Origin: Candidatus Omnitrophota bacterium
GTDB lineage: Bacteria; Omnitrophota; Gorgyraeia; 1-14-0-20-64-10
Length of the DNA: 64,000 nt
Direction: 5' to 3'
NCBI GenBank assembly: GCA_023248155.1
Contig: JAHFFE010000002.1
Span: 256,864-320,863, forward strand
Made by a program: the position numbers and the translations under genes. Below the pieces are notes generated by a model. That model saw only the letters and a program-made list of their open reading frames with translations. It was not told the DNA's origin and made no database searches. This document shows, one piece after another, positions 6,357 to 47,436 of the stretch. How positions within the stretch are numbered: position 1 is the first letter of the stretch; each line of letters begins with the position of its first letter.

Positions 6357-6363
6357 TAAACCA

Positions 6364-7002: not shown

Positions 7003-7006
7003 TCGG

Positions 7007-9493: not shown

Positions 9494-9497
9494 AACA

Positions 9498-10985: not shown

Positions 10986-11561
10986 ATGGCCAAGCAAAAA
11001 ATCTTGATGATCGATAACTACGACTCGTTCACCTACAACCTCGTGCAGTATCTGGGCGAGTTGGGGCAGGAACTGCTCGTTTATCGCAACGACAAAATCA
11101 CGCTCGAGCAGATCAAGCGGTTGAAACCGCACCGCATCGTGATTTCGCCGGGGCCTGGTTCCCCCAAAGATGCCGGCGTGTCGCGGCAGGTGATCGAACA
11201 ATTGGGGTCGAAAATCCCATTATTGGGCGTCTGTCTGGGGCATCAGTGCATCGGCGAGGTGTTCGGCGGCGTCGTTGAGCGCAACTGGAGATTGATGCAC
11301 GGGAAAACCAGCATGATCCATCACAACAAGCAGGGCGTTTTTCGCGGATTACCTGATCCGTTTGAAGCGACGCGGTATCATTCGCTGGTGGTGCGCCGCA
11401 AAGGGTTTCCGTCCGTGTTGGAAATTACCGCTGAGACAAAAGAAAAAGAAATCATGGGCCTGCGCCATAAAACCTATCCGATTCATGGCGTGCAGTTTCA
11501 CCCGGAATCGATCCTCACAAAATCAGGCATGCAATTGTTAAAGAATTTCCTGAAAGTCTGA
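10986..11561 (+). CDS. trpG: Anthranilate synthase component II (glutamine amidotransferase)
   Basis: Class-I GATase motifs: [15 protein letters not shown]…HPESILT. Confidence 0.85.
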
Positions 11562-12577
11562 TGGCTTCCTCCCTTTTATTGACCGATCAGATCCGCAATG
11601 GCCGTGCGCTCACGGAAGAACAGGCCGAGGCCGCAGTCCGCGCGATCATGTCGGGATCGGTTCCCGCCGAAGAAATACGCGACTGGCTGATGGCCTTAAA
11701 AGCAAAAGGCGAAACCCTTTCTGAAATTGTCGGAAGCGTGCGCGCGCTGCGGGCCTGCGCGGTGCCGTTTCCATTGGGTGATGTTGCGGCAGTCGATACC
11801 TGCGGCACGGGCGGCGACGGACTCAAAACGATTAATCTCTCAACGCTGGCGGCATTAACGGCCGCCGCGGCCGGCGCGCCGGTGGTCAAGCATGGCAACC
11901 GGGCTGTTTCGTCAGCGACCGGTTCGGCCGATTTGCTTGAAGCGCTCGGTGTGGGTGTTGATATCGAACCGGAACGGATGCGCCTTTGTTTTGAGAAAAC
12001 CGGATTCGCATTTTTGTTCGCGCCGCGTTATCACCCGGCGATGAAAATTGTAGCGCCGGTCCGCAAAGAACTGGGTGTTCCGACGCTGTTTAATTTGCTG
12101 GGGCCTCTTTCGAACCCGGCCGGTGTTTTGTATCAGGTGGTCGGCGTGGCGAATCCGGCGAAAATGGATCTCTACGCGCAAGCGCTTCAGCGGCTCGGAA
12201 CACGCCGCGCCTGGGTGGTGCATGCCGCCGATGGTCAGGACGAGTTATCAGTCAGCGGATATACCGAGGTGATTGAAGTGACGCCCGATACGCAAAAACG
12301 GTTTCAGGTGGATCCGTCCGATTATGGATTTCATGTGCAGTCGCTGCGCCAGATTCAGGGCGGTTCTCCGTCGGAGAACGCGCAGATCGCGCTTCGAATG
12401 ATCGGCGGCGAGCAGGGTGCCGTGCGGAATGCGGTTCTGTTGAATGCCGGTGCCGCGCTATTAGTTTGCGGACGCGCTGCTTCTTTACAGCAGGGGATTG
12501 AGCAGGCCGCTGCGGCAATCGATTCGGGTGCGCTGTCCCGCCTGCTTGAGAATATTAAACGGGTGACCCATCTCTAA
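11561..12577 (+). CDS. trpD: Anthranilate phosphoribosyltransferase
   Basis: …DTCGTGGDGLKTINLST…NLLGPLSNPAG… are TrpD motifs. Confidence 0.9.
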   Translation: MASSLLLTDQIRNGRALTEEQAEAAVRAIMSGSVPAEEIRDWLMALKAKGETLSEIVGSVRALRACAVPFPLGDVAAVDTCGTGGDGLKTINLSTLAALTAAAAGAPVVKHGNRAVSSATGSADLLEALGVGVDIEPERMRLCFEKTGFAFLFAPRYHPAMKIVAPVRKELGVPTLFNLLGPLSNPAGVLYQVVGVANPAKMDLYAQALQRLGTRRAWVVHAADGQDELSVSGYTEVIEVTPDTQKRFQVDPSDYGFHVQSLRQIQGGSPSENAQIALRMIGGEQGAVRNAVLLNAGAALLVCGRAASLQQGIEQAAAAIDSGALSRLLENIKRVTHL

Positions 12578-12590
12578 ATTAGCGGAAATT

Positions 12591-13352
12591 TTGGATTATA
12601 AAAAAATCGAACTGGCCGATACAAAAAAAGCCCGGCCGCTGAATTTGCTCGAGCGGGAACTGAGGAGCCGCCCGCCGGTTCGTTCTTTTCGTGAGGCTGT
12701 TAACCGCCCCGGCTCTCTGCGGTTGATTGCCGAATTTAAACGGACATCGCCGTCAGCCGGTTCGATCCGCCCCGGAGCCGATCCGGTGGAAACGGCCATG
12801 CTTTATGAAAAGTCGGGTGCCGCTGCCGTTTCGGTGCTGACCGACCGGCAATTTTTTTCCGGATCGATCGACGACTTGAAAGCGATCCGCGCGAAAATTA
12901 ATCTGCCGGTTCTGCGCAAAGAATTTATCATCGATGAATATCAATTGGTTGAGGCCTCGGCCGCCGGCGCCGACGCGATTTTGTTGATTGTCGCCGCGCT
13001 GGATCAGCCGCTGTTGAAACGGCTGCATCAGTTGACCGTTGATCTGGGGTTGGACCCGCTGATCGAGGTGCATCAGGAATCGGAACTGGATCGCGCGCTG
13101 GAAGTCGGCGCGCAGTTAATCGGCGTGAATAACCGCGACCTGGCCACTCTGAAAACCGATTTGAAAACCACCGAGCGTTTAATGCGGAAAATTCCGGCCG
13201 GCCCTGTGAAGATTAGTGAGAGCGGCATCCATTCGCGCGACGATGCGCGGTTCGTGCGCGATGCCGGAGCGCAGGCGATCTTAGTCGGCGAATCCATTTT
13301 ATCCGCGCCGGATATGGCGGCCAAAATCAAGGAACTGACCCATGTGGGTTAA
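12591..13352 (+). CDS. trpC: Indole-3-glycerol phosphate synthase
   Basis: …IAEFKRTSPSAGSIR…VLTDRQFFSGSIDDL…IGVNNRDLATL… is the IGPS signature. The TTG start at 12591 is the first start codon in frame; the exact start is uncertain. Confidence 0.8.
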   Translation: MDYKKIELADTKKARPLNLLERELRSRPPVRSFREAVNRPGSLRLIAEFKRTSPSAGSIRPGADPVETAMLYEKSGAAAVSVLTDRQFFSGSIDDLKAIRAKINLPVLRKEFIIDEYQLVEASAAGADAILLIVAALDQPLLKRLHQLTVDLGLDPLIEVHQESELDRALEVGAQLIGVNNRDLATLKTDLKTTERLMRKIPAGPVKISESGIHSRDDARFVRDAGAQAILVGESILSAPDMAAKIKELTHVG

Positions 13353-13965
13353 AATCTGCGGCATCACCAACCGTGACGACGCGCTGGCGGCGGTCGAGGC
13401 CGGAGCCGACGCCATTGGATTCGTGCTGGTGCCAACCAGTTCCCGCGCGATGACGCGCCATGCAATCGAAGAAATCCTTAAAGTGCTTCCGCCGATGGTG
13501 CTGACCGTCGGCGTAACGGCCAACGAGAATACCGATTATCTGCACGGACTTCTGCGCGTCTGTTCGTTGGGCGCCGTCCAGTTCCATGGTGAGGAGCCGC
13601 CCGAAACAGTACTGGCGCTGAAAGAGTCGGCGAAACTGATCAAGGCGATCCGCGTGAAAGACGCTCATTCGCTGGAAGCCATTCCGCTTTACCGCGGCGT
13701 CGACGCGATTCTGCTCGATACCTACGACACGCAGCGGATGGGCGGCACCGGTCAGCCGTTTGATTGGAACCTGGCGGTCCGCGCCAAGCAGTATGAAATT
13801 CCGCTGATCATCGCCGGAGGCCTTAATTCACGCAATGTGCAGGAAGTCATCAAGCGCGTCCAACCGCACGGCGTCGATGTCTCCAGCGGCGTCGAAGTTT
13901 CCCCCGGGAAAAAGTCTTTTTCCCTCATCCGCGAGTTTGTCCTCAAGGCCAAAAAAGCGGTATAA
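13342..13965 (+). CDS. trpF: Phosphoribosylanthranilate isomerase
   Basis: MWVKICGITNRDDALAAVEAGADAIGFV… is the PRAI N-terminus. Confidence 0.85.
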   Translation: MWVKICGITNRDDALAAVEAGADAIGFVLVPTSSRAMTRHAIEEILKVLPPMVLTVGVTANENTDYLHGLLRVCSLGAVQFHGEEPPETVLALKESAKLIKAIRVKDAHSLEAIPLYRGVDAILLDTYDTQRMGGTGQPFDWNLAVRAKQYEIPLIIAGGLNSRNVQEVIKRVQPHGVDVSSGVEVSPGKKSFSLIREFVLKAKKAV

Positions 13966-13972
13966 TGAAGGT

Positions 13973-14833
13973 ATGAGTACCTTCAAAACAGCATTTTTGC
14001 TGACGCTTTTAACCCTCTTTTTTATCGCCATCGGCGGCGCGCTGGGCGGCCGCCAAGGCATGCAGATGGCGTTTATCTTCGCGATGGCGACCAACCTGTT
14101 TGCCTACTGGTTTTCCGACAAGATTGTTTTGAAGATGTACCGCGCCCGTCCCGTGACCGAATCGGAAGCTCCCGAACTGGTGCGCACGGTCCGCCGGCTG
14201 GCACAATTGGGCGACATGCCGATGCCGAAAGTTTATATTATCCCGACGGAAACACCCAATGCGTTTGCGACGGGCCGCTCGCCGAACCACGCCGCTGTGG
14301 CAGCCACCGAAGGGATTTTAAAAATTCTGAATGCCGAGGAACTGGAAGGCGTATTGGCGCATGAACTTTCGCATGTGAAAAATCGCGATGTGTTAATCGG
14401 TACGATTGCCGCCGCGCTGGCCGGCGCTATTTATATGGTGATCAATATGGCGCGCTGGAGCATGATGTTCGGCGGCCGCAGCGACGACCGCGACCGGAAT
14501 TCCGGCCCCGCGCAGATAGTGGTTTTTCTAATCATTTCAATTATCGGACCGCTGCTGGCGGCGATGATCCAGATGGCGATCTCCCGTTCACGCGAATACC
14601 AGGCCGATGATTCCGGCGCGCGGCTTTGCCGCAAACCGCTGGCGCTGGCCTCGGCGCTGGAGAAGATTCATTCGATTTCCGCCCGTGTCCCGATGGGAAA
14701 TGCCAATCCGGCCACGGCGCATCTATTTATCATCAACCCGTTATCAGGCCGGGATTTGATGAACCTGTTCAGCACGCACCCTCCGGTCGAGCGCCGGGTG
14801 GAAGCGCTTCAGAAGCTGGCCCGCGAGCTATAA
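13973..14833 (+). CDS. htpX: Membrane zinc metalloprotease HtpX (M48 family)
   Basis: The ATG at 13973 gives [13 protein letters not shown]…, a polytopic membrane protein with the [15 protein letters not shown] motif. The track ORF starts at 13835, inside trpF. Confidence 0.85.
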
Positions 14834-14835
14834 CC

Positions 14836-16032
14836 ATGCCATCGCTACCCGATATGCAGGGCCATTTCGGCCCATTTGGGGGGAAGTTTGTTCCCGAAAC
14901 GCTGATGGGTTGTCTCACGGAGCTGGAAAAAGCTTACCGCGACGCCCGTCGTGATCCCGCGTTTCGCCGCGAGCTGACCCACTATTTAAATTCTTACGCG
15001 GGCCGCCCCACGCCGCTTTATCATGCTGAACGGTTGAGTAAAAAGATCGGGCGCGGGGTCCGTGTTTTCTTAAAGCGCGAAGATCTTTTGCATACCGGTG
15101 CCCATAAAATCAACAACACGATCGGGCAGGGCCTTCTGGCCAAGCGGATGGGCAAGCCGCGCGTGATTGCCGAAACCGGCGCCGGACAGCATGGCGTGGC
15201 AACGGCAACGGTGGCCGCGCTTTTGGGAATGCGCTGTGATGTGTATATGGGCGAACTCGACACCGTGCGCCAGCGTCTGAATGTGTTCCGTATGAAAATG
15301 CTGGGCGCGCGCGTGGTTCCGGTGACCAGCGGTTCCAAAACATTGAAAGATGCCTGCAATGAGGCGATCCGCGACTGGGTCACGAATGTCCGCGACACGC
15401 ATTATATTTTGGGATCGGTCGTCGGACCGCATCCGTATCCGATGATGGTGCGCGATTTTCAGTCGGTGATCGGCCGCGAGGCGCGACGGCAGATAAAAAC
15501 CGAGACCGGCCGTCTGCCGGATGTGGTGATGGCGTGCGTCGGCGGCGGCTCCAACGCGATGGGCAGTTTTTATCCGTTCTACCGCGACCGGTCGGTGAAA
15601 TTAATCGGCGTCGAGGCCGCGGGCAAGGGACTCAATACGCCTTATTACGCCGCCACGCTGGTGAAGGGGACCGTCGGTGTTTTGCACGGCGCCAAATCGT
15701 ATTTGCTGCAGGACAAGAACGGCCAGGTGATGGAAACCCATTCGATATCGGCCGGGCTGGATTATCCGGGTGTGGGCCCCGAACATTCGTATTACCGGCT
15801 TTCGGGCCGCGCGCAGTATGTCGCGGTGACCGATTCCGACGCGCTCGACGGTTTTAAATTGCTGGCCGAGACCGAAGGAATTTTGCCGGCGCTGGAAACT
15901 TCGCACGCGCTCGCTTATCTTTACAAGGCGCGCGCGCAGTTGAAGCGCGGATCGACCGTTGTCCTTTGTTTGTCGGGCCGCGGCGATAAAGATGTTGAAA
16001 CCATTTCGCGCGTACTGGAAAAATCGCGGTGA
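14836..16032 (+). CDS. trpB: Tryptophan synthase beta chain
   Basis: ATG at 14836 gives [24 protein letters not shown]…[16 protein letters not shown]…, the canonical TrpB. The track ORF starts at 14626, within htpX. Confidence 0.95.
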
Positions 16033-16823
16033 GCCGTATCTCCGGAATGTTCGCGCAGCTGCGGCGGCGCAAAGAAAAAGCATTAATCGTTTATCTGACG
16101 GTCGGTTTTCCGTCGATGAAGATGCTTCCTTCTTTGGTGAAGGCGGCCGTGGAAGGCGGCGCTGATTTAATCGAGCTGGGTGTTCCGTTCTCCGATCCTT
16201 TGGCCGATGGTCCGACGATCCAGATGGCCTCTCAGAAAGCGCTGGAGAACGGCATCACGGTGCCGAAAATTTTTGAGGCCGTAAAACAACTGCGCCGGTC
16301 CGGCATTAAAATTCCGCTGGTGCTGATGACTTATGCCAATCCGGTTTTTCAGTATGGGCTGGCACAGTTTTGTAAAAAAGCGGCCTCCGTTGGCGTTGAC
16401 GGTTTGATTATTCCTGATCTTCCTCCGGAAGAAGCGGGTGAGTTGCTGCCGTTGGCGCGGGCCGCCCGTCTTGATACGATTTTTTTGACTGCGCCGACCA
16501 GTTCTCCGGAACGGATCCGTAAAATTATTCGGGTATCGACCGGTTTTGTTTATTCGGTCAGTCTGACCGGCGTCACCGGAACGCGCAATGAACTGCCTTC
16601 CGATCTGGTGGCGCAGGCGCGGCGGATCAAAAAGTTATCCCGCGTTCCGGTTTGCGTCGGCTTTGGCATCTCACGGCCCGATCAGGTGCGCCATGTGGCG
16701 TCCGTCGCCGATGGTGTCATTGTCGGTTCCGCGCTGATCCAGACGATCTCTAAAGCGGGTTCTGCTAACGCGCCCCAAGCCGTGGTCCGGTTTTTGAAAG
16801 GATTGAAACAGGCGTGCCGGTAA
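16029..16823 (+). CDS. trpA: Tryptophan synthase alpha chain
   Basis: …[11 protein letters not shown]…[22 protein letters not shown]… is the TrpA signature. Confidence 0.9.
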
Positions 16824-26012: not shown

Positions 26013-26089
26013 CGGGGCGTAGCGTAGTTTGGTAGCGCGCTTGCATGGGGTGCAAGAGGTCCCCAGTTCAAATCTGGGCGCCCCGACCA
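26013..26089 (+). tRNA. tRNA-Pro (anticodon GGG), CCA encoded
   Basis: Hand-folded cloverleaf. Acceptor CGGGGCG/CGCCCCG. D-stem GCGT/GCGC. Anticodon stem CTTGC/GCAAG with loop AU-GGG-GU. T-stem CCCAG/CTGGG with TTCAAAT loop. A76-CCA at 26086-26089. Confidence 0.85.
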
Positions 26090-26107
26090 TTTTTTAGAGG
26101 TGAAGTG

Positions 26108-27415
26108 ATGGCAAACAATGAAAAAATCAATGTAGGGTTGTTCGGGCTGGGCACCGTCGGATCGGGCGTGGCGCATATGCTGTTGTCGCGCCGCGAATTC
26201 CTGGAACGGCGCACCGGCATTCCGTTCGCGCTGAAGAAAGTCTGCGTGCGCCGGCTGAAAAAACCGCGCCTGGTTCGGATCGACCCGAAACTGCTGACGA
26301 CGCGCGCCGACGAAATTTTAAACGATCCCGACATCGACATTGTCGTTGAGGTGATGGGCGGAATTCATCCGGCCAAGGAGATCGTGCTGCAGGCGATTGC
26401 GGCCGGTAAACCGGTCATTACCGCCAATAAAGCGCTGCTGGCGCACCACGGCGATGAAATTTTCACGGCGGCCGCGAATAAAGGCGTCGATGTCTATTTC
26501 GAATCGAGCGTCGCCGGCGGAATCCCGATCATCAAAAGTTTGCGCGAAGGCCTGGTCGGCAATGACATCGAGGCGCTCTACGGAATTCTCAACGGCACCA
26601 CGAACTTTATCCTGACCGAGATGTCGCGCGGCGAAGGCCGTTCGTTTGAATCGGCGCTGAAAGAAGCGCAGGAACGCGGCTACGCCGAAGAGAATCCATC
26701 GCTCGACCTCAAGGGCATCGATACGGCCCATAAAATTTCGGTGCTGGCACTGCTGGCGTTTGGAAAAATGGTCCGGCCCGACCAGATTTACGTCGAAGGC
26801 ATTCAGCAGATCACCGCCAATGATGTGCGGTACGCGCATGATTTCGGTTACACGATCAAATTGTTGGGCATCGCCAAGCGCGAAGGCGAGCAGCTGGAAA
26901 TCCGCGTCCATCCGACGCTGCTGCCGAATAACCATTTGCTGTCCAGCGTTAACGGCGTTTACAACGGCGTTTTCGTCAAGGGCGATTTAGTCGGCGAGCA
27001 GCTGCTTTACGGCCAGGGCGCCGGCCGTTTCGCGACGACCAGCGCCGTTATTTCAGATCTGGTGGACCTGGGGCGCAATTTAATCCGGCAGACGCCGCAG
27101 CGGATTCCGCTGCCGCTGCCGTCCAAGCGGATCCGCCGCGTGCGCAAGATCGGCGAGATGGAAGGCCGCTACTATTTCCGTTTTTCGTGCATCGACCGTC
27201 CCGGCGTTCTGGCGACGATCGCGCGCATTCTGGGCAGTCACCGCATCTCCATCGCCAGCGTGGTCCAGAAAGACCGCCGCCGCGAGCATATCGTTCCGGT
27301 CGTCATGATGACGCACGACGCGAAAGAAAAAGATGTGCAGGCCGCGTTGGCTGAAATCAACGCGCTTCAGGCAGTCCGCCGCAAGTCGGTTTCAATCCGG
27401 ATCGATCGCGCCTAA
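26108..27415 (+). CDS. hom: Homoserine dehydrogenase (with C-terminal ACT domain)
   Basis: The ATG at 26108 is preceded by agagg and gives MANNEKINVGLFGLGTVGSGV…. The track ORF start at 26045 lies inside the tRNA and is rejected. Confidence 0.9.
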   Translation: MANNEKINVGLFGLGTVGSGVAHMLLSRREFLERRTGIPFALKKVCVRRLKKPRLVRIDPKLLTTRADEILNDPDIDIVVEVMGGIHPAKEIVLQAIAAGKPVITANKALLAHHGDEIFTAAANKGVDVYFESSVAGGIPIIKSLREGLVGNDIEALYGILNGTTNFILTEMSRGEGRSFESALKEAQERGYAEENPSLDLKGIDTAHKISVLALLAFGKMVRPDQIYVEGIQQITANDVRYAHDFGYTIKLLGIAKREGEQLEIRVHPTLLPNNHLLSSVNGVYNGVFVKGDLVGEQLLYGQGAGRFATTSAVISDLVDLGRNLIRQTPQRIPLPLPSKRIRRVRKIGEMEGRYYFRFSCIDRPGVLATIARILGSHRISIASVVQKDRRREHIVPVVMMTHDAKEKDVQAALAEINALQAVRRKSVSIRIDRA

Positions 27416-28477
27416 GTGAACAATAAAGCCTGGCCCGGATTGATCGAGGCCTACCGCCGCTTTCTGCCGGTTTCTTCCAAAACGCCCGTCGTATCGCTGA
27501 TGGAAGGCAACACGCCGCTGATTCCGGCGCGCGCGCTGGAAAAAGAGATCGGCAACGGTTGCCGCGTTTATCTCAAATACGAAGGGTTGAACCCGACCGG
27601 TTCGTTCAAAGACCGCGGCATGACAATGGCCGTTTCCAAAGCGAAGGAAGACGGCCGCAAGGCGATCATCTGCGCCTCGACGGGAAACACCTCAGCGTCG
27701 GCGGCTGCTTATGCCGCGCGCGCCGGACTGCGCTGCGTGGTGGTTATCCCGGAAGGGGCGATCGCGCTGGGCAAATTGGCGCAGGCGCTTATTCACGGCG
27801 CGCAGGTGATCGCCGTGCGCGGATCGTTCGATGTCGCGCTGTCGCTGGTGCGGAAGATCGCGCGCGAGCGGCCGATCGCGCTGGTCAACTCGGTCAACCC
27901 GTACCGCATTGAAGGGCAGAAAACCGCGGCGTTTGAAATCTGCGATCAGCTCGGCCGCGCGCCCGATTATCAGGCGATTCCCGTCGGGAACGCCGGCAAC
28001 ATCACCGCTTATTGGAAGGGCTATCGCGAATATCGCGCCGGTAAAAAAATCAGCCGGCTGCCGCGTATGCTCGGGTTCCAGGCCGCGGGCGCTGCTCCGC
28101 TGGTGAAGAACAAACCGGTCGAAAAACCGGAAACAATTGCCACTGCGATCCGGATCGGCAACCCGGCCAGCTGGGCCGGGGCGATCGCCGCGCGCGACGA
28201 GTCGGACGGCCTCATTGGTGCCGTGACCGACAAAGAAATCCTCAACGCGTATCAGTTCCTTGCCGAGAAGGAAGGTGTTTTCGCCGAACCGGCTTCGGCC
28301 GCGTCGGTGGCCGGTGTTTTAAAACTGGCCCGCAAGCGGTACTTCCGCCGCGGTTCCACGATTGTCTGCATTCTGACCGGGCACGGGCTTAAAGATCCCG
28401 AACGGGCGGTAAAAACCGTTCGCGCGCCCGTCGTGCTTCCTCCCGATTTGCGCGCCATTCTGCGCGTGATAAAATAA
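27416..28477 (+). CDS. thrC: Threonine synthase
   Basis: …FKDRGMT…[18 protein letters not shown]… is the PLP-lysine region. Confidence 0.9.
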
Positions 28478-28490
28478 CAAGATTATTCCG

Positions 28491-29702
28491 ATGAAAACGA
28501 TACTTTTAATTTGTGACGGCATGGCCGATGATCCGGTGGAGCAGCTGGGTGGAAAAACTCCGCTGGAAACTGCAAAAACTCCGCAGATGGACCGGCTTGC
28601 CCGCGAAGGCCGGCTGGGACTGGCCCGCACGATCCCGCAAGGCATGACCGCTTCGCGTGAAGTGGCCGCGATGGGGTTGATGGGGTACGATCCAAAAAAA
28701 TATTATCCGGGCCGCGGGCCGCTGGAAGCCGCTTATTGGGGCGTTCCGGTTCAGGCCGGCGATCTTATTTTTCGCTGTAATCTGGTCACCACCGACGGAG
28801 AACTGCTGATTGACGATCTGGCCGGGCGCATCAGTTCGGAAGAATCGAATCCGCTCATGGAATTGATCCGAAAAGAACTTACTTCCGGCGGCGTTCAGTT
28901 TTTTACGGGCCGGCAATATCGCCACGCGGCCATTTTTCGCGCGCCTGAAGACACGGCGGCGTTGCTCAAGACCGTCTGCCGGCCGGCTTATGAAATGGGC
29001 GGCCAGCCGCTTGAGAAAAATTGGCCCAAAGGCCCCGGCGCGCAGCGGCTGAAAGATCTGATGCTGCGCTCGCGCGATTTGCTGGCTGCCAATGAAGTGA
29101 ACCAGGTTCGCGTCGATCTGAAAGAAAATCCGGCCAACATGATCTGGCTATGGGGGCAGGGCGTTCCGCATGAAATTCCGTCGATGAAAGAACGCTGGAA
29201 TGTCAAAGGCGCCGTGATCTCCGGTTCCGACAGCATCAAGGGCGCCGGACGCGCGGCCGGTTTGCATGTGGAAGAACTTCCGCTGTCGTCGGGAAATCTG
29301 GAGAGCGACCATTTGCAGCGCGCCGAAGCGGCGATCCGCGCCTTGGCCGGAAACGATCTTGTTTTTGTGCATGCCGAAGCGGCGCATGCCGGTATTTATC
29401 CCGACGATCTGCGACAGAAAATTTCGGCGATTGAACTGTTTGACCGCATTGTCGTCGGACCGGTCGTTGAAAAAGCGCGGGCATTGGGTCCGGTGCGCGT
29501 GATGGTCGGGACCGATCATCCGGTGTTAATTGAAAAGCGGGTCTGCACCGACCAGCCGGTTCCTTTGGTGGTCTGGGGCGATGGAATTCCGTCCGGGTCG
29601 GCCGAGCAATTTACCGAACCGCAGGCGAAGTCCGGCGGGTGGATGGTCGAAACCCCGCATGATTTAATGCCGCGCCTGCTGGCCGGCGAAACGATCGTCT
29701 AG
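28491..29702 (+). CDS. Cofactor-independent phosphoglycerate mutase-like protein, archaeal ApgM family (alkaline-phosphatase superfamily); candidate alternative homoserine kinase
   Basis: MKTILLICDGMADDPVEQLGGKTPLETAKTPQMDRLAREG… is the ApgM/COG3635-type N-terminus. The gene is embedded in hom-thrC-X-lysC, where thrB is expected, and no canonical GHMP thrB is present. Confidence 0.75.
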   Translation: MKTILLICDGMADDPVEQLGGKTPLETAKTPQMDRLAREGRLGLARTIPQGMTASREVAAMGLMGYDPKKYYPGRGPLEAAYWGVPVQAGDLIFRCNLVTTDGELLIDDLAGRISSEESNPLMELIRKELTSGGVQFFTGRQYRHAAIFRAPEDTAALLKTVCRPAYEMGGQPLEKNWPKGPGAQRLKDLMLRSRDLLAANEVNQVRVDLKENPANMIWLWGQGVPHEIPSMKERWNVKGAVISGSDSIKGAGRAAGLHVEELPLSSGNLESDHLQRAEAAIRALAGNDLVFVHAEAAHAGIYPDDLRQKISAIELFDRIVVGPVVEKARALGPVRVMVGTDHPVLIEKRVCTDQPVPLVVWGDGIPSGSAEQFTEPQAKSGGWMVETPHDLMPRLLAGETIV

Positions 29703-29981
29703 AACCGGTCTCCTAAATCCCCGTGGCCGCGCTTAAGCAGAATGACGAGCCAGACAAGGCGCGAGGAGGCCGGCGTAGTCAAAGCACTACGGCAACGACG
29801 AGTAACGAAGTATGGCGATGTTAGAATGTTAAGCCCGAAGGGTTTCGGCGGCAGGCCGCCGTCTCCTGCGGCGCTCTTCCTCGACGGATTACTGTGAATA
29901 CGCCGTCGTCATCGCTTCTTGGATACGGCAGGCCTGGCGCACGAAACGCGGTTCACGCGGATTTAGGAGACCGGTTCTAAC
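29702..29981 (+). promoter_or_regulatory. Highly structured 5' leader of lysC with SD-sequestering long-range helix (riboswitch-like)
   Basis: The 19-nt segment GAACCGGTCTCCTAAATCC at 29702-29720 is the exact reverse complement of 29959-29977. The latter contains the lysC Shine-Dalgarno AGGAGA 5-10 nt before the ATG. Several internal GC-rich hairpins lie in between. Confidence 0.5.
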
Positions 29982-31244
29982 ATGGCTCTGATTGTTCAGA
30001 AATACGGCGGTTCTTCGGTGGCCAACGCGGAACGGATCAAACGGGTGGCCCAGCGGATTTCCAAAACAAGGAAAGCCGGCCACTCGGTCGTCGTCGTTGT
30101 CTCGGCGATGGCCGATACCACCGACGATTTGCTGTCGCTCTCCGCGGAAGTATCGCGGCATCCGCCCGAGCGCGAAATGGATATGCTGCTGGCCACCGGC
30201 GAACAGGTTTCCTGCGCGCTGCTGGCAATGGCGATCGACCAATTGGGTGTAAAAGCGGTTTCATTTACCGGCGCGCAGGTCGGCATCATTACGAACCGCG
30301 CGCATACCAAGGCGCGCATTCAGGAAATCAGCGCGCAGAAAATCAAGCAGGCGATCTCGAAAGGGTTCGTCGTGATCGTGGCCGGTTTTCAGGGCATGAC
30401 TCCCGACGGAGAAATCACCACGCTCGGCCGAGGCGGTTCCGACTTGACGGCCGTCGCGCTGGCGTACGCGGTTAAAGCGAAAATCTGTGAAATTTATACC
30501 GATGTCGAAGGCGTCTACACGGCCGATCCGCGATTGGTGCCGACGGCGCGCAAATTAAAAACGATCAGTTACGACGAGATGCTCGAGCTGGCCAGCCTGG
30601 GAGCCCAGGTGATGCAGGCCCGTTCGATGGAAGTGGCGAAAAAATACGGTGTTCCGCTGCATATCCGGTCGAGTTTATCGAACCGGACCGGAACGATTAT
30701 TTCCAAGGAGGTTAGGGCGATGGAAGATGTGGTGGTCAGCGGCGTTTCGCTGCAAAAGGATGAAGCCAAAATCACGATTTGCGATGTTCCGGACCGTCCC
30801 GGCATTGCCGCCGCCATTTTTACCCGGATTTCCGACGCGCACATTAACGTCGATGTGATCGTGCAGAATGTCGGGCGCACCGGCCTCAACGACGTGTCAT
30901 TCACGGTGCCGCGCACCGAATTGTCGCGCGCGCTGCGCGTGGTCCGCCGCGTTGCCGCAGAACTGAAGGCCGGCCGCGTACTGCACGACGACAGCATCGC
31001 GAAACTATCGGTGGTGGGCGTTGGTATGCGCGCCCATTCCGGTATTGCCGCGCGAATGTTCCAGGCGCTGGCGAACGAATCGATCAACATCGACATGATC
31101 TCTACCAGCGAGATCAAGATCTCCTGCATCATCCGCAGGGATCAGGCGCAAAAGGCGATCCGGACCGTGCATGACGCGTTCGGGCTGGATAAATTAGGAA
31201 TCAAACCGGAAATGGTGAAAGTGAGTAAACCGAGGCGCTCCTAA
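29982..31244 (+). CDS. lysC: Aspartate kinase with C-terminal ACT domains
   Basis: MALIVQKYGGSSVANAERIKRVAQRI…VVVVSAMADTTD… is the aspartokinase signature. ACT regulatory domains are present. Confidence 0.9.
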   Translation: MALIVQKYGGSSVANAERIKRVAQRISKTRKAGHSVVVVVSAMADTTDDLLSLSAEVSRHPPEREMDMLLATGEQVSCALLAMAIDQLGVKAVSFTGAQVGIITNRAHTKARIQEISAQKIKQAISKGFVVIVAGFQGMTPDGEITTLGRGGSDLTAVALAYAVKAKICEIYTDVEGVYTADPRLVPTARKLKTISYDEMLELASLGAQVMQARSMEVAKKYGVPLHIRSSLSNRTGTIISKEVRAMEDVVVSGVSLQKDEAKITICDVPDRPGIAAAIFTRISDAHINVDVIVQNVGRTGLNDVSFTVPRTELSRALRVVRRVAAELKAGRVLHDDSIAKLSVVGVGMRAHSGIAARMFQALANESINIDMISTSEIKISCIIRRDQAQKAIRTVHDAFGLDKLGIKPEMVKVSKPRRS

Positions 31245-32815
31245 TGTCTCAAAAAATCTTTTTATACGATACGACGATGCGCGACGGCGCGCAGACCGAG
31301 GGAATCTCTCTGTCCGTCAGCGACAAGATGCAAATCTTGGCCAAGCTCGATGAGCTGGCGATCCCATACATCGAAGGCGGCTGGCCGATGGCCAGTCCCA
31401 AGGAGATGGAATTTTTCCTGAAGGCCAAAAAGGAACTTAAGCTCAAGCACTCGGTATTGACGGCGTTCGGTTCCACGCGCAAGGCCAACATGGCCGTCGG
31501 GAAAGATCCGCAGGTTAAATCGCTGCTTGATTCCGGGGCGCAGGTCGCCACGATTTTCGGCAAGACCTGGGACCTGCACGTGAAAGAGGTGTTCCGCGTT
31601 CCGCTTGAGGAAAATCTCAAGATGATCCACGAGACGGTTGCCTATCTCAAAAAGCAGGGCGTGGAAGTGATGTACGATGCCGAGCATTTCTTCGACGGCT
31701 ACCGCGCCAATCCCGAGTTTGCGCTGAAAACTCTCGAGGCCGCCGCCGACGCGGGCGCTTCGACCATCATCTTGTGCGATACCAACGGCGGTTCTTTGCC
31801 GCACTATGTTTACGAGACGGTAAAATTGGTCCGCGCGCGGATCGCCGTGCAGTTGGGCATCCATTGCCACAATGATTCCGAATTGGCCGTGGCCAATTCG
31901 ATCGCGGCTGTTGAAGCCGGCGTCGCGCAAATCCAGGGCACCATCAACGGCTACGGCGAACGGTGCGGCAACGCGAACCTCTCGTCGATCATTCCGGTGC
32001 TTCAGTTAAAGATGGACCGTCCGGTCGTTCCGTCCGACCGCCTCAAGCATTTGACCGAGGTCTCTCATTTTGTCGCCGAGATCTGCAACATGCGCACCAA
32101 CGATCATCAGCCGTTCGTCGGCGCGTCGGCATTTGCGCACAAGGGCGGTGTCCATATCAACGCGGTGCTTAAAAATACACTGACCTACGAACATATTGAT
32201 CCGGCGCTCGTCGGCAACGAACAGCGGCTGCTGATTTCCGAAATGGGCGGCAAGACCACCATCCAGGCCCGCGCGAAAAAATTGAAGATCGATCCCGATG
32301 CCGATCCCGAAAAGGCGAAGGCTTTTCTGGCCACCGTGCGCGAGCGCGAGAATGCCGGGTTCCATTACGAGGTGGCCGAGGGTTCTCTGGAACTGCTGCT
32401 GCGCAAGGCCTACGACAAATTCAAAAGCTCGTTTGATCTGGAGAAATTCAGCGTGTTGGTCGAGAAAACTCCGAAAGAGCTGACCTCGCAGGCGACGATC
32501 AAACTGAAGGTCGACGGAAAAACACAGTTGACCGTCGGCGAAGGCGATGGTCCCGTCAACGCGCTCGATCAGGCGCTGCGCAGCGCGCTGCAGAAATTTT
32601 ATCCGCAAGTCGGGGAAATGCACCTGGTCGACTTCAAAGTCCGCGTGCTTGAATCGGACCAGGGCGGGACCGCCGCGCGCGTGCGCGTGCTGATCCAGTC
32701 GCAGGATGAAGACGACAGCTGGTGGACCATCGGCGTCAGCGAGAACATCATTGAAGCCAGCTGGCAGGCGCTCGTTGATTCGGTCGAGTACAAACTGCTG
32801 AAAGACAAAAAATAA
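31244..32815 (+). CDS. (R)-citramalate synthase / 2-isopropylmalate synthase family, long form with regulatory domain; likely CimA
   Basis: MSQKIFLYDTTMRDGAQTEGISLS… DRE-TIM barrel with HxH motif (…LGIHCHNDSELAVANS…) and a ~150-aa C-terminal LeuA-dimer-like domain. Start overlaps the lysC stop. Confidence 0.75.
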   Translation: MSQKIFLYDTTMRDGAQTEGISLSVSDKMQILAKLDELAIPYIEGGWPMASPKEMEFFLKAKKELKLKHSVLTAFGSTRKANMAVGKDPQVKSLLDSGAQVATIFGKTWDLHVKEVFRVPLEENLKMIHETVAYLKKQGVEVMYDAEHFFDGYRANPEFALKTLEAAADAGASTIILCDTNGGSLPHYVYETVKLVRARIAVQLGIHCHNDSELAVANSIAAVEAGVAQIQGTINGYGERCGNANLSSIIPVLQLKMDRPVVPSDRLKHLTEVSHFVAEICNMRTNDHQPFVGASAFAHKGGVHINAVLKNTLTYEHIDPALVGNEQRLLISEMGGKTTIQARAKKLKIDPDADPEKAKAFLATVRERENAGFHYEVAEGSLELLLRKAYDKFKSSFDLEKFSVLVEKTPKELTSQATIKLKVDGKTQLTVGEGDGPVNALDQALRSALQKFYPQVGEMHLVDFKVRVLESDQGGTAARVRVLIQSQDEDDSWWTIGVSENIIEASWQALVDSVEYKLLKDKK

Positions 32816-42921: not shown

Positions 42922-45900
42922 ATGCTTGAACGCAAAAAATTAAGACACCTTAAAACAATCCTTTGCCTGACGCTGGCCATCGTTATGGCGTTGCCGCCGC
43001 CCTTTCTTTTTGCAGCTTCTTCCAATACAAATCATCTTCGTATGGCCCAGATTCAAGATAGTCGTTCCAACCCCATTCGTACCGGTCTGGAAGAATCTCT
43101 GCGCGGCGCGCTGGAGGAAAATACAGGCGAAAATAGAGCCGAACATCCGGACGTTTCCCTCAACCCGGTTTCTTTCTACATTGAAGCTTTCGGAGAAAGC
43201 ATTAGTGCTGCGAAGAGTTCTCTGGGCGCTCCTACGTCTGTTAGCTGGGCTGGCTTTTTGAGGAATGAACTGCCCTCTGTTGAATGGCAATTTGAACATC
43301 TAATAAGACCTATCCAAAATAACCTCCCCGCTTTTCTGCGTTTTTTGAAATCAAGCGATGCCGTCACTTCTGATTTGTTGGCGGAAGCTCGTTCGGAGAT
43401 CGCGAAGGAAGTGGGGCTGCCTTCCGATCAGATTTTCTTTATCCGGCCAAATGACTATTTGGTGTGGGGTTTGTTTTACGGCCTGAATGATTTCGAAGGA
43501 CCGTCCGGAGAACTGCGGCCCCATTTGGGTACTCGGGGCTTTCATGTGGCTGTTCCCGATGCGTCAGGGCAGCCAGTCAGGCTATTGTTTATTCGAAATG
43601 ATCTGAATGATTTCAATGGATTAGCAACGCTTGCTCACGAAGTGGCGCACTCTCGGCAGGATGTTAACGCTTTGGACTTGTATCATCGGAATGAGTTGGG
43701 GCGCAGTATCATCGAAGGCCTTCAGCAAGATCAGGAATATCAGATTTTATTATCTTTAGCTCAGAGGGAAACCGCTTTTGGACAGAGAGTTGCCCAAGTC
43801 ATTCAGGATGAATTTCGGGAAACCGCCTCTACTAGCGAACAGCGGATTCCCAAGGACCTTTCAATGCAATTGGGATCATTATTGTGGGACATTGATTATC
43901 AACAGGAGCACCTGTTTGTTAGAAGTCTGAGGGACCGGATGGTGGAAGCGGCGGGAGAAGCAGCGGCAGAAGCAGCGCTTCAAGAAGTTTACCAGAGAGG
44001 TAACTTGACCGCGGTTAGCTCAGCGCTTGTTGGATCTTCGCGCTACGAGCTGACGTCGTCTATTCTCGATCAGTTTCGGCAACTGCAGGCGCGTAATGAG
44101 CGGTTCTATCAACATGTTGGATTAAGCCTGGCCTCCCACTTTGGACTTGGTTCCAGGGAATACACGCCGCGTGAAACAGAATTGCTTCTGGAATTTTTTG
44201 AAACATTGGTTGATCTACTGTCGAAGAATATAGCTTTCCAAAAGGAAGAAAACGACCCCTTTTCGCTTTCAGAAGATGTTATTGATCTGGCAGAAGCGTA
44301 TCTGCAAGGGGGAATTTCCAGAGAAGAAGCTCCAGGGAACATCGCTAATCTTTTCGACAACTTTGAACCCGATACCTCTGAATCCGGTTTGGAAGAAGCA
44401 GAGGCGCGGGTTCAGAAGATTCTGCAGATTCTTCGGGAAGGGAATGCAAAAGAAGAGGGAGGGGTTCTGCTTAATCTCGACAGACTTCTTACGCCCGAGC
44501 CCCATCCGGCGTTGGTTCAGCAGGCAAAACTTGTAGTGACAGAGTTCGTCCAAAACTTATCCACAACCGACTTGGATATGAGGCGAGTTTCAGTAAGAGG
44601 GTTACAGCGTCTCATGCCACACGCTGCTTTTCGAGATGCGATGGTTGGAACCGGTCTGGTCCAAGCTGCGATAGAGCATCCGTCCTATCATCTGATGGGC
44701 TATCCTAGCTCAGATTTGACAGGAACCTTGTCTCCGTTAATTCCGGATGAGCGTTTTAGAAATGAGTTCTCTGAGGGAGTTCTTCGATTGCTTCTGCTGA
44801 TGGCCTCTTCCGAAAAATCATTGCTTCGTGATGATGCGAAAAAGCTTCTGTCCGCCATCAGTGCCGACCCAGGGTTTTACCCTGTTTTGGTTGTTCAGAT
44901 TCCAACATTAGTTGACTGGACCATTTACGGTGATCAAAACAACATCTTCTTGCGTAGCGACAGTTATGAGCTCCTTGAGGCCATGGCCAAAGCCGACCAT
45001 CGCCTTTACTGGCCCGAGCTTTTAGCTCAAGTGCCGTATATTCTTGCGGCTCTGCCTCGGAGTCCTGTCTATGCAAGCGATTTGCTTAGAGACATTCTTA
45101 AGCAAATGGATTTAGCTCAAAATCCGGATCTCCAAAATGTATTAATTCGGGGAACCCCCTTACTCATAAAGCTTGCCTACGGTTTTGCCCAATCATCAGT
45201 TGTAAGAGATATTCTTCTCGATTTATCCAGGGCGGATAATCCTTTGTTCGATACGGCTCTTGCTTTGGAAGTGACAGGGCGGTTGTCTAAACTGGGGGAT
45301 TCAAATTTGGAAATTCGGTCTGAAGCCAGCTTTAGTCTGAATCGGATGGTGGGAAAAGGAGATTTTTCTCCGGTGCTGGCGGCTCATATCCCGGAGCTTG
45401 TTTCTCAGCTTAGTTCCCCAGAATGGGATGCCCGTTATCATGCAGGCAAAATTCTCTCTGAAATGGCTCTTAATCCGGCAAGAGTCTTTCATTCAGCATT
45501 GGCGCTGCAGATTCCGAATTTGTTTGAGCCCCTGGGTCATCAAAGCGACGTAGTCGCCGCGGCGACAAACAGCGTAGTCGCCGCTTTTCTGCAGGGCGGG
45601 GTCGCTCCGGGTGTTCTGGCGCTGCATTATTTAGTTCATTTCCCGCAATTGGCGGAACGCGGCGAAGCGCTGCTGCGCGCCCTATATCTCAAGGGGTTTT
45701 ATGCGGCACCGGTCTATGAACAAGCTGCTCGTTCAGTGCTTCAAAGCAATGGTTCAAGCCGTTGGCATGTGGAAAGTAATCAAGGAGGTCTTGTGTTGGT
45801 AGAAAGTTATGGCCGGCCGTTGGACATTCCGGCGGACGAGCGTGTTCCCCTCACTGATCCCGATGGAGATTCTATCGCGGACGCGAAACTGGAAATAGCT

Positions 45901-47436
45901 GAGGAAAATGATGAGTCATCCTACGGCGGCATAGCCGACCAGTTTTACCGAGTGGCGACATTAACTCGCGATGGAGAGAGACAAGGGCTTCTGCTTTATC
46001 AACCGGCACTGACAGCGTGGGAGAGTGCCACTACTCAGCAGAGGCAGCAGAAAGGCGCTGTTTTTGTGGGTATGTCACCGTACGCAGGGCAGGTCTTCTT
46101 CCTGATGCCGTGGGGAGAACTGCTGCAAATATGGGTGAACACCCAGGAGCTTCTGAATGATCAAGACCGCCGCGTTCGAGAAGCGCAAGCTTATTTTAAA
46201 GAACATCAGGATCTTTCGAGGTTAATGACGAATCTGACTGGCAATGACGATGATAAATACTTTATCTTTCAAAGTCTGATCGTAGAAATGCCGTTGGAAG
46301 GGGCATTTCTGGATGAAGAAAGCGGTCTTCCCATGAGTGTGGTAGCGGAGTTGACGTCCAAGGGCGTTGACAGAGAAGAGATAAGGCCCTTTGTGAATCA
46401 TGCCTTGGCGATATGGCTGGAGGAAGTCCAACAGGAAGGCGACCTCCGGTCGCTCTATGAGATGCTCTTTCATCTGATTTACTTCAAGATTTTGCCCGGT
46501 GAAATATCCGGATATCGCGATGTGATTCAGGTTCGACAGGGAGAGTTCAATGGCATGCAGGCAGAACAGATGTTAAACGAAGCCATTGCGCCCGATCTTC
46601 CTCCGGCCATTAGTGCGGGGATCACGAAAGAGGTTGCAGAAGGTGGCAGCGTTGGGCTTCGGCGTGGGGGTGTCTTCGATGTCCACGCCAAAACCACCTG
46701 GCAACTTTTGGCTGATTTAGAGACACGCGGCCGTGTCCAGACTCCGACAGCGCCCTCCCTCTCGTTGGGAGAAGAAGGGTGGACTCTTAAACTGCTGGGA
46801 GAACTTCAAAAAGGAACAATAGGTATTTATCTCAACAGCGATGCCCAGCCCTTGTCGCCAGATCGGTTTGGCGATGAATTTCCGGATGGAATCAGCCATC
46901 TTGTGATTAAGCCTGTGCCTTCTTCCGGCATGGAGGAAGAAACTGTTACCGTTACGCAAAATGGGCCGGTCATTACCACCACGGCCACGGCGCTGCGCAT
47001 CGAATGGAACAATTTCCCCAGGGTCACTATTTCTTCGACGATAACCGAGCCTAAGCGCGTATTGATTGTAACGCCGGATGGTTTAACCAAACTTTCGTTG
47101 GCGGCGGTCTTTGCCGGCCCCGACGGGAAGAGCCCGTTGATCATCGAAGCGCTGGCAGTCGATGATGCGCAGAAAGGTCGCGTCGAATCGGCTTTGCGCG
47201 AATTGGGTTTGACCAATATCCGCGTCCATAGCGTTAAATCAGAGTTTGGCGGGAATACCGGCGAGGGGATCGCTACTCTTGAGATGTTGCACTGGCAGCA
47301 GAACCAGCAAACTCTTGTAGTCACCGCTCTCACCGAGCTGGCAGATATTGCGCAGTTCCTGGGTGTTCCCGGCGCGGAATTGGAACTCTTTGGTGTTGAA
47401 GCGGCTGCCCAGAATAGCCAGTCGGTTTGGTCGTAA
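42922..47436 (+). CDS. Giant (1504 aa) secreted hypothetical protein with HEXXH motif and HEAT-like repeats
   Basis: N-terminal signal peptide MLERKKLRHLKTILCLTLAIVMALPPPFLFAASS. LATLAHEVAHSRQD motif near residue 240. Repeated helical HEAT/PBS-lyase-like units (…SPEWDARYHAGKILSEMA…). RBS aagga upstream. GC is clearly below that of neighbouring genes. Confidence 0.7.
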   Translation: MLERKKLRHLKTILCLTLAIVMALPPPFLFAASSNTNHLRMAQIQDSRSNPIRTGLEESLRGALEENTGENRAEHPDVSLNPVSFYIEAFGESISAAKSSLGAPTSVSWAGFLRNELPSVEWQFEHLIRPIQNNLPAFLRFLKSSDAVTSDLLAEARSEIAKEVGLPSDQIFFIRPNDYLVWGLFYGLNDFEGPSGELRPHLGTRGFHVAVPDASGQPVRLLFIRNDLNDFNGLATLAHEVAHSRQDVNALDLYHRNELGRSIIEGLQQDQEYQILLSLAQRETAFGQRVAQVIQDEFRETASTSEQRIPKDLSMQLGSLLWDIDYQQEHLFVRSLRDRMVEAAGEAAAEAALQEVYQRGNLTAVSSALVGSSRYELTSSILDQFRQLQARNERFYQHVGLSLASHFGLGSREYTPRETELLLEFFETLVDLLSKNIAFQKEENDPFSLSEDVIDLAEAYLQGGISREEAPGNIANLFDNFEPDTSESGLEEAEARVQKILQILREGNAKEEGGVLLNLDRLLTPEPHPALVQQAKLVVTEFVQNLSTTDLDMRRVSVRGLQRLMPHAAFRDAMVGTGLVQAAIEHPSYHLMGYPSSDLTGTLSPLIPDERFRNEFSEGVLRLLLLMASSEKSLLRDDAKKLLSAISADPGFYPVLVVQIPTLVDWTIYGDQNNIFLRSDSYELLEAMAKADHRLYWPELLAQVPYILAALPRSPVYASDLLRDILKQMDLAQNPDLQNVLIRGTPLLIKLAYGFAQSSVVRDILLDLSRADNPLFDTALALEVTGRLSKLGDSNLEIRSEASFSLNRMVGKGDFSPVLAAHIPELVSQLSSPEWDARYHAGKILSEMALNPARVFHSALALQIPNLFEPLGHQSDVVAAATNSVVAAFLQGGVAPGVLALHYLVHFPQLAERGEALLRALYLKGFYAAPVYEQAARSVLQSNGSSRWHVESNQGGLVLVESYGRPLDIPADERVPLTDPDGDSIADAKLEIAEENDESSYGGIADQFYRVATLTRDGERQGLLLYQPALTAWESATTQQRQQKGAVFVGMSPYAGQVFFLMPWGELLQIWVNTQELLNDQDRRVREAQAYFKEHQDLSRLMTNLTGNDDDKYFIFQSLIVEMPLEGAFLDEESGLPMSVVAELTSKGVDREEIRPFVNHALAIWLEEVQQEGDLRSLYEMLFHLIYFKILPGEISGYRDVIQVRQGEFNGMQAEQMLNEAIAPDLPPAISAGITKEVAEGGSVGLRRGGVFDVHAKTTWQLLADLETRGRVQTPTAPSLSLGEEGWTLKLLGELQKGTIGIYLNSDAQPLSPDRFGDEFPDGISHLVIKPVPSSGMEEETVTVTQNGPVITTTATALRIEWNNFPRVTISSTITEPKRVLIVTPDGLTKLSLAAVFAGPDGKSPLIIEALAVDDAQKGRVESALRELGLTNIRVHSVKSEFGGNTGEGIATLEMLHWQQNQQTLVVTALTELADIAQFLGVPGAELELFGVEAAAQNSQSVWS

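Follow-up and report, generated by a model that had tools for sequence, protein, structure and literature searches.

In this work we examined a 64,000-nucleotide stretch of a Candidatus Omnitrophota genome (contig JAHFFE010000002.1, positions 256,864 to 320,863; this whole stretch is called the window below) and, within it, a gene of a threonine operon that lies between thrC and lysC and is called gene X. As judged from sequence comparisons, gene X is an ortholog of the homoserine kinase HomK that lost its catalytic serine and three metal ligands in a burst of change and was afterwards held by purifying selection, and similarly degenerate proteins recur in threonine operons. From these losses we infer that the phospho-serine, two-metal mechanism attributed to the HomK family is not available to the window protein. 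Our preferred reading, whose truth we regard as evenly balanced, is that gene X encodes a catalytically disabled HomK derivative kept for a non-catalytic, ligand- or partner-binding role tied to the threonine operon, homoserine presumably being phosphorylated by an enzyme encoded outside the window.

The HomK family, whose members are phosphotransferases of the alkaline phosphatase superfamily resembling the archaeal-type phosphoglycerate mutase ApgM, is listed by NCBIfam as 'proposed homoserine kinase' (TIGR02535). It was named ThrB2 by Ashniev et al. and is found in genomes without thrB (PMC9026213); it received the name HomK in a preprint in which BT2402 of Bacteroides thetaiotaomicron and the diverged DET_RS08350 of Dehalococcoides mccartyi rescue an E. 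coli thrB::kan mutant (10.1101/2024.10.14.618325). A preliminary description of this locus had treated the displacement of thrB by a phosphoglycerate mutase (PGM)-like protein as merely a proposal from genome context, but it is already known, as a named family with two complementing members. The mechanism proposed in the same preprint (GapMind 2026) involves a phospho-serine intermediate on S56 and a two-metal centre, the phosphate donor being left open with phosphoserine as a suggestion; the residue that tells HomK and true PGMs apart is E299, Glu in the former and Lys in the latter, and according to these authors the Glu recognizes homoserine by its amino group (10.1101/2024.10.14.618325). 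The non-homologous phosphoserine:homoserine phosphotransferase ThrH of Pseudomonas aeruginosa was proposed as a functional analogue (10.1101/2024.10.14.618325), and provides, as proposed for HomK, a non-ATP phosphotransfer route to O-phosphohomoserine. The GHMP-type ThrB (E. coli b0003) carries out the equivalent step and occupies the slot between hom and thrC in many bacteria, and has no homology to gene X.

A reference sequence for BT2402 was obtained from metagenome contigs, in which the published forward primer, reduced to its native part, served as the query. It is the ORF (open reading frame) L008:5284-6507, whose ends fit both primers and which lies between an ask-hom fusion and thrC. 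Its second metal site was placed at D302/H306/H356 by alignment to the archaeal-type PGM ApgM of Pyrococcus horikoshii (PDB 2zkt, D305/H309/H356) and by the superfamily pattern D-x3-H ... DH ... H, which we take to apply here. Residues D9, S56, E299, D346 and H347 agree with the numbering of the preprint; the second-site residues given in its Appendix 3, D274/H278/H325, are N/E/V in the BT2402 sequence (10.1101/2024.10.14.618325).

The residues that define the catalytic centre were read after aligning the window protein to BT2402, 2zkt and 119 homologs, and are located in the window as follows.

28491..29702 (+): gene X, protein of ApgM fold whose catalytic centre is dismantled, positional ortholog of HomK/ThrB2/TIGR02535 (domains, alignment, synteny and AlphaFold2 model)
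28515..28517 (+): Asp9 codon, kept nucleophile-side metal ligand (BT2402 D9; alignment columns)
28653..28658 (+): Ser55-Arg56 codons TCG CGT, Arg56 standing in the column of the catalytic Ser (BT2402 S56, 2zkt S60)
29376..29378 (+): Glu296 codon, HomK specificity residue (BT2402 E299; Lys302 in 2zkt)
29385..29405 (+): HAGIYPD in place of the invariant DEAGHNG, with Asp->His299 and His->Tyr303 (alignment)
29514..29519 (+): Asp342-His343 codons, kept DH metal ligands (BT2402 D346/H347)
29544..29546 (+): Cys352 codon, in place of the third ligand His (BT2402 H356); Phe in the relative P0002

With D9/S56/E299/D302/H306/D346/H347/H356 (BT2402 numbering) taken as a signature, the window protein reads DREHYDHC, compared with DSEDHDHH in 82 of the 83 full-length loci outside the window clade (species-representative genomes, among the matches listed) and in nearly all of the 119 protein homologs of the first search. 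The column of the catalytic Ser holds Arg56 in four independent alignments, Ser55 being adjacent and out of register, and the Asp/His/His of the second metal site has become H299/Y303/C352. All three nucleophile-side ligands (D9, D342, H343) are retained, as are the HomK-specific Glu (E296 = BT2402 E299 = 2zkt K302) and the pocket residues R75, R95, N97 and R144. The motif exchanges are ungapped: PxSDVxN is replaced by ASREVAA, DEAGHNG by HAGIYPD and PDHPTP....H by TDHPVL....C. More generally, among 129 invariant columns, each at least 95% conserved across 114 canonical sequences, the window protein keeps 95 and has changed 34, and the changed columns cluster in seven active-site motifs (PxSDVxN, DYSAGH, PPHD, ISAVDL, GATGYYDTxYxxK, DEAGHNG and PDHxTP..H). 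The window protein fails the functional-residue check that the GapMind authors applied to accept diverged HomKs (10.1101/2024.10.14.618325). An alignment artefact was ruled out, since the same columns are obtained by phmmer against 2zkt and in four MAFFT alignments that are ungapped around the sites, and reading of the codons showed no frame change from which the new motifs could originate.

Four more sequences, whose identity to the window protein is 80–93%, show the same state, except that P0002 has Phe in place of Cys; the other close homologs are canonical. These relatives come from separate ENA, JGI, NCBI and Logan assemblies, and thrC and lysC flank the gene in all that have context. Agreement between five independent assemblies rules out a sequencing or assembly error. 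None of the five sequences departs from S55, R56, H299, Y303, ASREVAA or HAGIYPDD; variation within the clade is seen in the former GATG..DT motif and at position 352 (Cys/Phe). A separate case is P0024 (ENA, 2-kb contig), an otherwise canonical Omnitrophota HomK with a TIGR02535 score of 511 bits in which the only signature change is Ser56->Arg (PARDVGN), together with D67A; this is either another early change at the nucleophile or a sequence error.

The tempo of change was measured against four neighbouring genes, using the mean identity of hom, thrC, lysC and cimA in 49 genomes. In pairs of canonical genomes the identity of X equals 0.996 x neighbour identity - 0.032 (residual standard deviation, SD, 0.023), while in pairs that include the window it lies 0.135 under this line (-5.9 SD); none of the other genomes among the 49 is an outlier, the next worst standing at -0.023. 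For example, between the window and locus L012 the neighbours are 74–80% identical and X is 55% identical, compared with 73% expected. Within the variant clade the ratio of non-synonymous to synonymous substitution rates (dN/dS) of gene X is 0.09–0.13 (six pairs, dS 0.28–0.75), compared with 0.03–0.09 (median 0.05) for canonical X in pairs of similar divergence. The corresponding clade values and canonical medians are 0.08–0.15 and 0.07 for thrC, 0.03–0.05 and 0.056 for hom, and 0.01–0.06 and 0.051 for lysC. To judge from these substitution patterns, a burst of change on the stem of the clade was followed by real selection about twofold weaker than normal, thrC being slightly raised too. A pseudogene is ruled out by these ratios and by the intact ORFs. 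Columns identical in all five sequences make up 92/95 of the kept invariant positions, 23/34 of the changed ones and 173/274 of the ordinary ones (changed versus kept, Fisher p = 2e-5). The changed columns are therefore about as conserved as ordinary ones, which indicates that the former active-site positions have, as a class, lost their special constraint.

The identity of gene X as a HomK ortholog is supported by its surroundings. The preliminary description had placed a 403-aa ApgM-like gene between thrC and lysC, downstream of hom, and Pfam, NCBIfam and the coordinates bear this out: the ORF starts with ATG, is a real coding gene, and matches PF10143 PhosphMutase (1.5e-42) and PF01676 Metalloenzyme (5.8e-23). 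On the same strand the order is gpsA, tRNA-Pro, hom, thrC, gene X, a 280-bp spacer, lysC, cimA, valS and nadC, and the thrC stop at 28477 is 13 nt upstream of gene X. The features around gene X are:

26013..26089 (+): tRNA-Pro(GGG), between gpsA and hom (Rfam RF00005, 61 bits; ARAGORN)
26108..27415 (+): hom, homoserine dehydrogenase with a C-terminal ACT domain (PF00742, PF03447, PF01842; NF004976, 534.7 bits)
27416..28477 (+): thrC, threonine synthase, intact, needs O-phosphohomoserine (TIGR00260, 328.3 bits, cutoff 167)
29700..29979 (no strand assigned): 280-bp structured insertion with 26-nt terminal inverted repeats, absent from relatives
29982..31244 (+): lysC, monofunctional aspartate kinase with ACT domains (NF005155, 606 bits)
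31244..32815 (+): cimA, citramalate synthase (TIGR00977, 718 bits)

The longest hom ORF (26045-27415, 456 aa) overlaps tRNA-Pro(GGG), and because of this overlap, and because a 435-aa protein is called on the identical contig L001, the real start is placed at about 26108 (435 aa). The product of Hom is the substrate for the missing homoserine kinase step. P0005 (Omnitrophota GCA_016196455.1), at 55% identity the canonical protein nearest to that of gene X, is encoded in the same block as the window gene (hom-thrC-...-X-lysC-cimA-valS-nadC-x-uvrB-birA-nfeD), and the order gpsA-hom-thrC-X-lysC-cimA-valS-nadC-uvrB is found in about 70 of the best 80 loci from GTDB representatives. These syntenic loci, among the matches listed, are nearly all from Omnitrophota or PVC-labelled metagenome-assembled genomes, and the window species itself is absent among the matches listed (best 53%). 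Synteny rules out the possibility that gene X is a spare paralog. It was also asked in the preliminary description whether this clade is separate from true ApgM, and it does stand apart, by Glu296 at the position of the PGM Lys and by the synteny shared with canonical HomKs. As side observations on this block, the nearest canonical relative carries an 872-aa ORF with a dihydrodipicolinate synthase domain (DHDPS, PF00701) between thrC and homK (L012 7342-9960; L013 6692-9310), and in many other Omnitrophota loci the distance from gene X to lysC is about 2.7 kb, which suggests an extra gene.

The suggestion that no GHMP homoserine kinase is present was upheld for the 64-kb window, which is the range over which the absence of thrB holds. 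A GHMP motif, a phmmer match to E. coli ThrB and a PGM-like gene other than X were all looked for there without result, and in Pfam scans of the window there was no GHMP or APH-type homoserine kinase, the only kinases being lysC and coaX. All ORFs of at least 240 aa were covered, either by Pfam scans or, for uvrB and birA, by families read from the identical contig L001; three of them (1504, 271 and 241 aa) have no Pfam match, and among the larger ORFs the scans identified housekeeping genes as well as his and trp operons. Taken together, the GHMP motif, the phmmer comparison with E. coli ThrB and the Pfam scans brought up no second homoserine kinase in the window. For ThrH, the window is covered only by the Pfam scans, no search aimed at ThrH having been made.

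The AlphaFold2 model of the window protein is a confident ApgM fold (predicted local distance difference test, pLDDT, 92.1; predicted template-modelling score, pTM, 0.91), and its best PDB match by Foldseek is 2zkt (E 7e-32, template-modelling score, TM, 0.77–0.81); a model of the canonical control P0005 has a pLDDT of 94.7. Both models show a dip in pLDDT at 261–270, while the dips at 291–310 (78/67 versus 93/90 in P0005) and 341–350 (84 versus 94) are specific to the window protein and coincide with the lost metal-site motifs. A helix begins at residue 56 in both models, so that Arg would occupy the usual place of the nucleophile at the N-terminus of the helix, with Ser55 in the preceding loop. 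By phmmer, 2zkt matches gene X at 1.3e-49, and 3idd and 3kd8 are also among the closest solved structures. These ApgM proteins (TIGR00306) share the Pfam domains of gene X but have Lys where gene X has Glu, keep the Ser and all metal ligands, and act in glycolysis and not in a threonine operon. HomK/ThrB2 proteins, on the other hand, resemble gene X in their two-domain ApgM fold, specificity Glu and placement beside hom and thrC, and differ from it in that gene X lacks the catalytic Ser and the Asp/His/His site and falls below the trusted cutoff of the family model, which makes its activity doubtful.

The TIGR02535 score of the window protein is 383.8, for a trusted cutoff of 446.3; the scores are 367 for P0002, 402 for P0003, 507–550 for canonical Omnitrophota orthologs and 603.9 for BT2402. 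The cutoff alone is not decisive, because the experimentally supported DET_RS08350 is also not classed under TIGR02535 (10.1101/2024.10.14.618325). Combined with the loss of the catalytic Ser and of three metal ligands, this score nevertheless goes against the opinion that the locus is a good candidate for biochemical confirmation of homoserine kinase activity. In TIGR00306 the window protein scores 381.8, for a subfamily cutoff of 320, and BT2402 scores 509. In the equivalog NF003242, 'cofactor-independent phosphoglycerate mutase', BT2402 scores 581 (cutoff 426) and canonical Omnitrophota HomKs 532–570. Since both models score the HomK BT2402 highly, neither separates the two functions, and these scores probably explain why HomK proteins are named PGM in public records.

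Loss of catalytic residues is not confined to the window clade. A search of 1.84 billion cluster representatives returned 647 clusters at E <= 1e-30, and the canonical signature is present in 87 of the best 150 of these 647 representatives. In a tree alignment of 156 sequences (145 of the best 150 representatives and the reference sequences, among them the five of the window clade), a loss of two or more of the seven catalytic residues is seen in 47; misalignment does not account for these losses, because the scaffold motifs align well. With the signature columns removed, a neighbour-joining tree contains eight all-degenerate clades and places the window clade on a long stem inside canonical Omnitrophota. 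The sampled degenerate representatives outside the window clade are:

P0123: signature NCEDQDYP, context thrC-X-lysC
P0133: signature DAEGRSYY, context hom-thrC-X
P0148: signature DDEHLNQH, context hom-X-lysC
P0141: signature DGHDRSHQ, X after a PALP gene (thrC-like), lepB and purC
P0170: signature AREYMDLQ, unrelated neighbourhood

Three of these five lie beside hom and/or lysC, and a fourth near the thrC-like PALP gene. P0170 (L098 8001-9197) has a methyltransferase, an HtrA-like protease and a phosphomannomutase as neighbours and no threonine context. P0133 is from Omnitrophota; it and its 84% identical relative P0272 are both degenerate and differ at 5/8 signature positions, while their next relatives, 57–64% identical, are canonical, which makes this a second recent and independent loss in Omnitrophota. 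Because P0133 falls in a large all-degenerate clade of the tree although its closest relatives are canonical, long-branch attraction is likely, and we rejected the idea that the two large all-degenerate clades represent single events. The older degenerate clades are diversified, with many clusters below 50% identity, and in addition lack E296, R75, N97 and the DH ligands, all of which the window protein keeps. In the searchable literature we found no report of a nucleophile-less HomK or of threonine synthesis in Omnitrophota; what is new here is a HomK ortholog without nucleophile and without the second metal site that is under selection, as well as the recurrence of such forms.

These observations can be assembled into the following scenario. 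Ancestral gene X would have been a HomK supplying O-phosphohomoserine in thrB-less bacteria. On the stem of a small Omnitrophota lineage the nucleophile Ser gave way to Arg, the Asp/His/His site turned into His/Tyr/Cys(Phe), and five further active-site motifs were remodelled, while the fold, the HomK Glu, several pocket Arg and Asn residues and the Asp and Asp-His ligands of the other metal site stayed in place; after this burst purifying selection acted on the protein. We prefer to read the outcome as a disabled protein for three reasons: a sole essential kinase that loses its nucleophile and three ligands would have to pass through dead intermediates, the changed positions now drift, and the same slot is more completely decayed in other lineages. 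A parallel is PGM5/aciculin among the alpha-D-phosphohexomutases, a catalytically inactive phosphomutase-family member whose scaffold is retained under selection, although, unlike gene X, it is a eukaryotic structural protein of a different superfamily with no operon context. Several facts weigh against a disabled protein. The threonine synthase ThrC, which requires O-phosphohomoserine, is intact, and the 64 kb searched brought up no further homoserine kinase; the position in the operon is kept, 13 nt after thrC; the HomK Glu, the pocket Arg and Asn residues and the nucleophile-side ligands are conserved as in a working enzyme; S55 directly precedes the lost nucleophile in all five sequences; the replacing His, Tyr and Cys are all capable of binding metal; and no non-catalytic role is known for any HomK. 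A broader proposal, which we put forward tentatively and find rather doubtful, is that HomKs have a second, catalysis-independent function linked to the threonine operon: they might, for instance, bind or regulate ThrC, Hom or aspartate kinase, or act as sensors of homoserine or phosphohomoserine. Such a function would preserve the protein under selection once the phosphotransferase centre had gone, and the window clade would represent one among several pseudo-HomK lineages that arose independently in Omnitrophota and related groups, some other protein being their real homoserine kinase.

The main rival, which we consider unlikely, is that gene X still makes O-phosphohomoserine by a remodelled single-metal site, Asp9, Asp342 and His343 holding one metal, Ser55 acting as a shifted nucleophile or transfer being direct, and Arg56, His299 and Tyr303 stabilizing the phosphate and the leaving group. 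Arylsulfatases, phosphonate monoester hydrolases and LtaS/EptA, which belong to the alkaline phosphatase superfamily and bind one metal, keep only the nucleophile-side site, as gene X does, and use basic residues to stabilize the phosphate and the leaving group; all of them, however, hold a nucleophile (formylglycine, Ser or Thr) where gene X has Arg. The ligands kept in gene X are exactly those of the nucleophile-side site, the four residues Ser55, Arg56, His299 and Tyr303 are invariant in the clade, Glu296, R75, R95, N97 and R144 are kept, and the operon position, the intact thrC and a dN/dS of about 0.1 are what a working enzyme should display. Against this stand the merely ordinary conservation of the 34 changed positions as a class, the variation of the former GATG..DT motif and of position 352, the non-functional intermediates required if gene X was the sole kinase, and the far more complete decay at the same sites, in the same operon slot, in other lineages. 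The enzyme might also have been neofunctionalized for another reaction or substrate after another kinase had made HomK redundant. A burst concentrated in the active site, renewed constraint and the invariant new motifs HAGIYPDD and ASREVAA are in keeping with such a change, but it appears improbable, as the nucleophile and a metal site are gone without any recognizable new catalytic motif, the changed positions as a class are under only average constraint and the operon context is unchanged.

A comparably low probability attaches to gene X being a relic heading to loss, HomK activity having become dispensable and the ORF being not yet disrupted. The dN/dS about twice the canonical value (0.12 versus 0.05), the drift of the former active-site motifs, the divergence of P0133 and P0272 at their signature positions despite 84% identity and the mobile-element-like insertion right after gene X would fit this view; yet dN/dS of 0.09–0.13 with dS up to 0.75 is far from neutral, five independent sequences contain no frameshift or stop, 92 of the 95 kept invariant positions are identical in all five, and degenerate clades elsewhere are old and diversified. 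That gene X is an ordinary functional HomK replacing ThrB by the standard mechanism, as originally proposed for this locus, could draw on the operon position, Glu296, the relatives in the HomK clade and the lack of thrB in the window, but is very improbable, given the absence of the catalytic Ser and three ligands, the 34 changed invariant positions, a TIGR02535 score under the cutoff and the failed functional-residue criterion of GapMind 2026; the residues by themselves already imply a loss of function. A true archaeal-type cofactor-independent PGM has a negligible probability: the protein passes the broad TIGR00306 cutoff (381.8 > 320) and its relatives are named PGM in public records, but this model is non-discriminating, as BT2402 scores 509 bits in it, the specificity position holds Glu and not Lys, the nucleophile and a metal site are missing, and the context is threonine synthesis and not glycolysis.

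Other features of the window were noted in the course of this work. The spacer between gene X and lysC consists of a 280-bp element (29700-29979) that sits exactly between the stop codon of gene X and the start of lysC, has terminal inverted repeats of 26 nt (TAGAACCGGTCTCCTAAATCCCCGTG / CACGCGGATTTAGGAGACCGGTTCTA) and has a predicted RNA fold of -138.7 kcal/mol (z = -7.5). An Rfam search of the spacer, even at E <= 1, gave no riboswitch or known RNA, and no second copy of its repeat was found in the window or in any fetched locus. The close relatives L011, L095 and L096 have no such element, the gap from gene X to lysC being 0–11 nt, and the element looks like an insertion of the type of miniature inverted-repeat transposable elements. 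In a scan for promoters and terminators, the numbers of matches were close to those expected from shuffled sequence. Upstream on the same strand (5118-16823) lie a his cluster (hisD, hisB, hisH, hisA, hisF) and a trp cluster, in which trpE, trpD, trpC, trpB and trpA are confirmed by Pfam and short unscanned ORFs occupy the positions of trpG and trpF; the organism thus encodes extensive amino-acid biosynthesis. The 1504-aa ORF without Pfam match (at E <= 1e-5) lies at 42922-47436 and is followed by a 738-aa TPR protein; it sits in a region with a G+C content of 0.49–0.51, compared with about 0.57 elsewhere.

HomK, only recently accepted as an enzyme of threonine synthesis, closes a gap that is among the most frequent when this pathway is predicted in bacteria. 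Its recognition in pathway tools and in NCBI annotation relies on homology, and NCBI names it as PGM. The present locus shows that homology combined with a perfect operon context is insufficient, as a positional ortholog can lose its nucleophile and a metal site, and such degenerate forms recur within one phylum. If these proteins are inactive, their genomes must have an unrecognized homoserine kinase, and annotations that automatically score the threonine pathway as complete would be wrong; if they are active, the phospho-serine, two-metal mechanism of HomK would not be obligatory.

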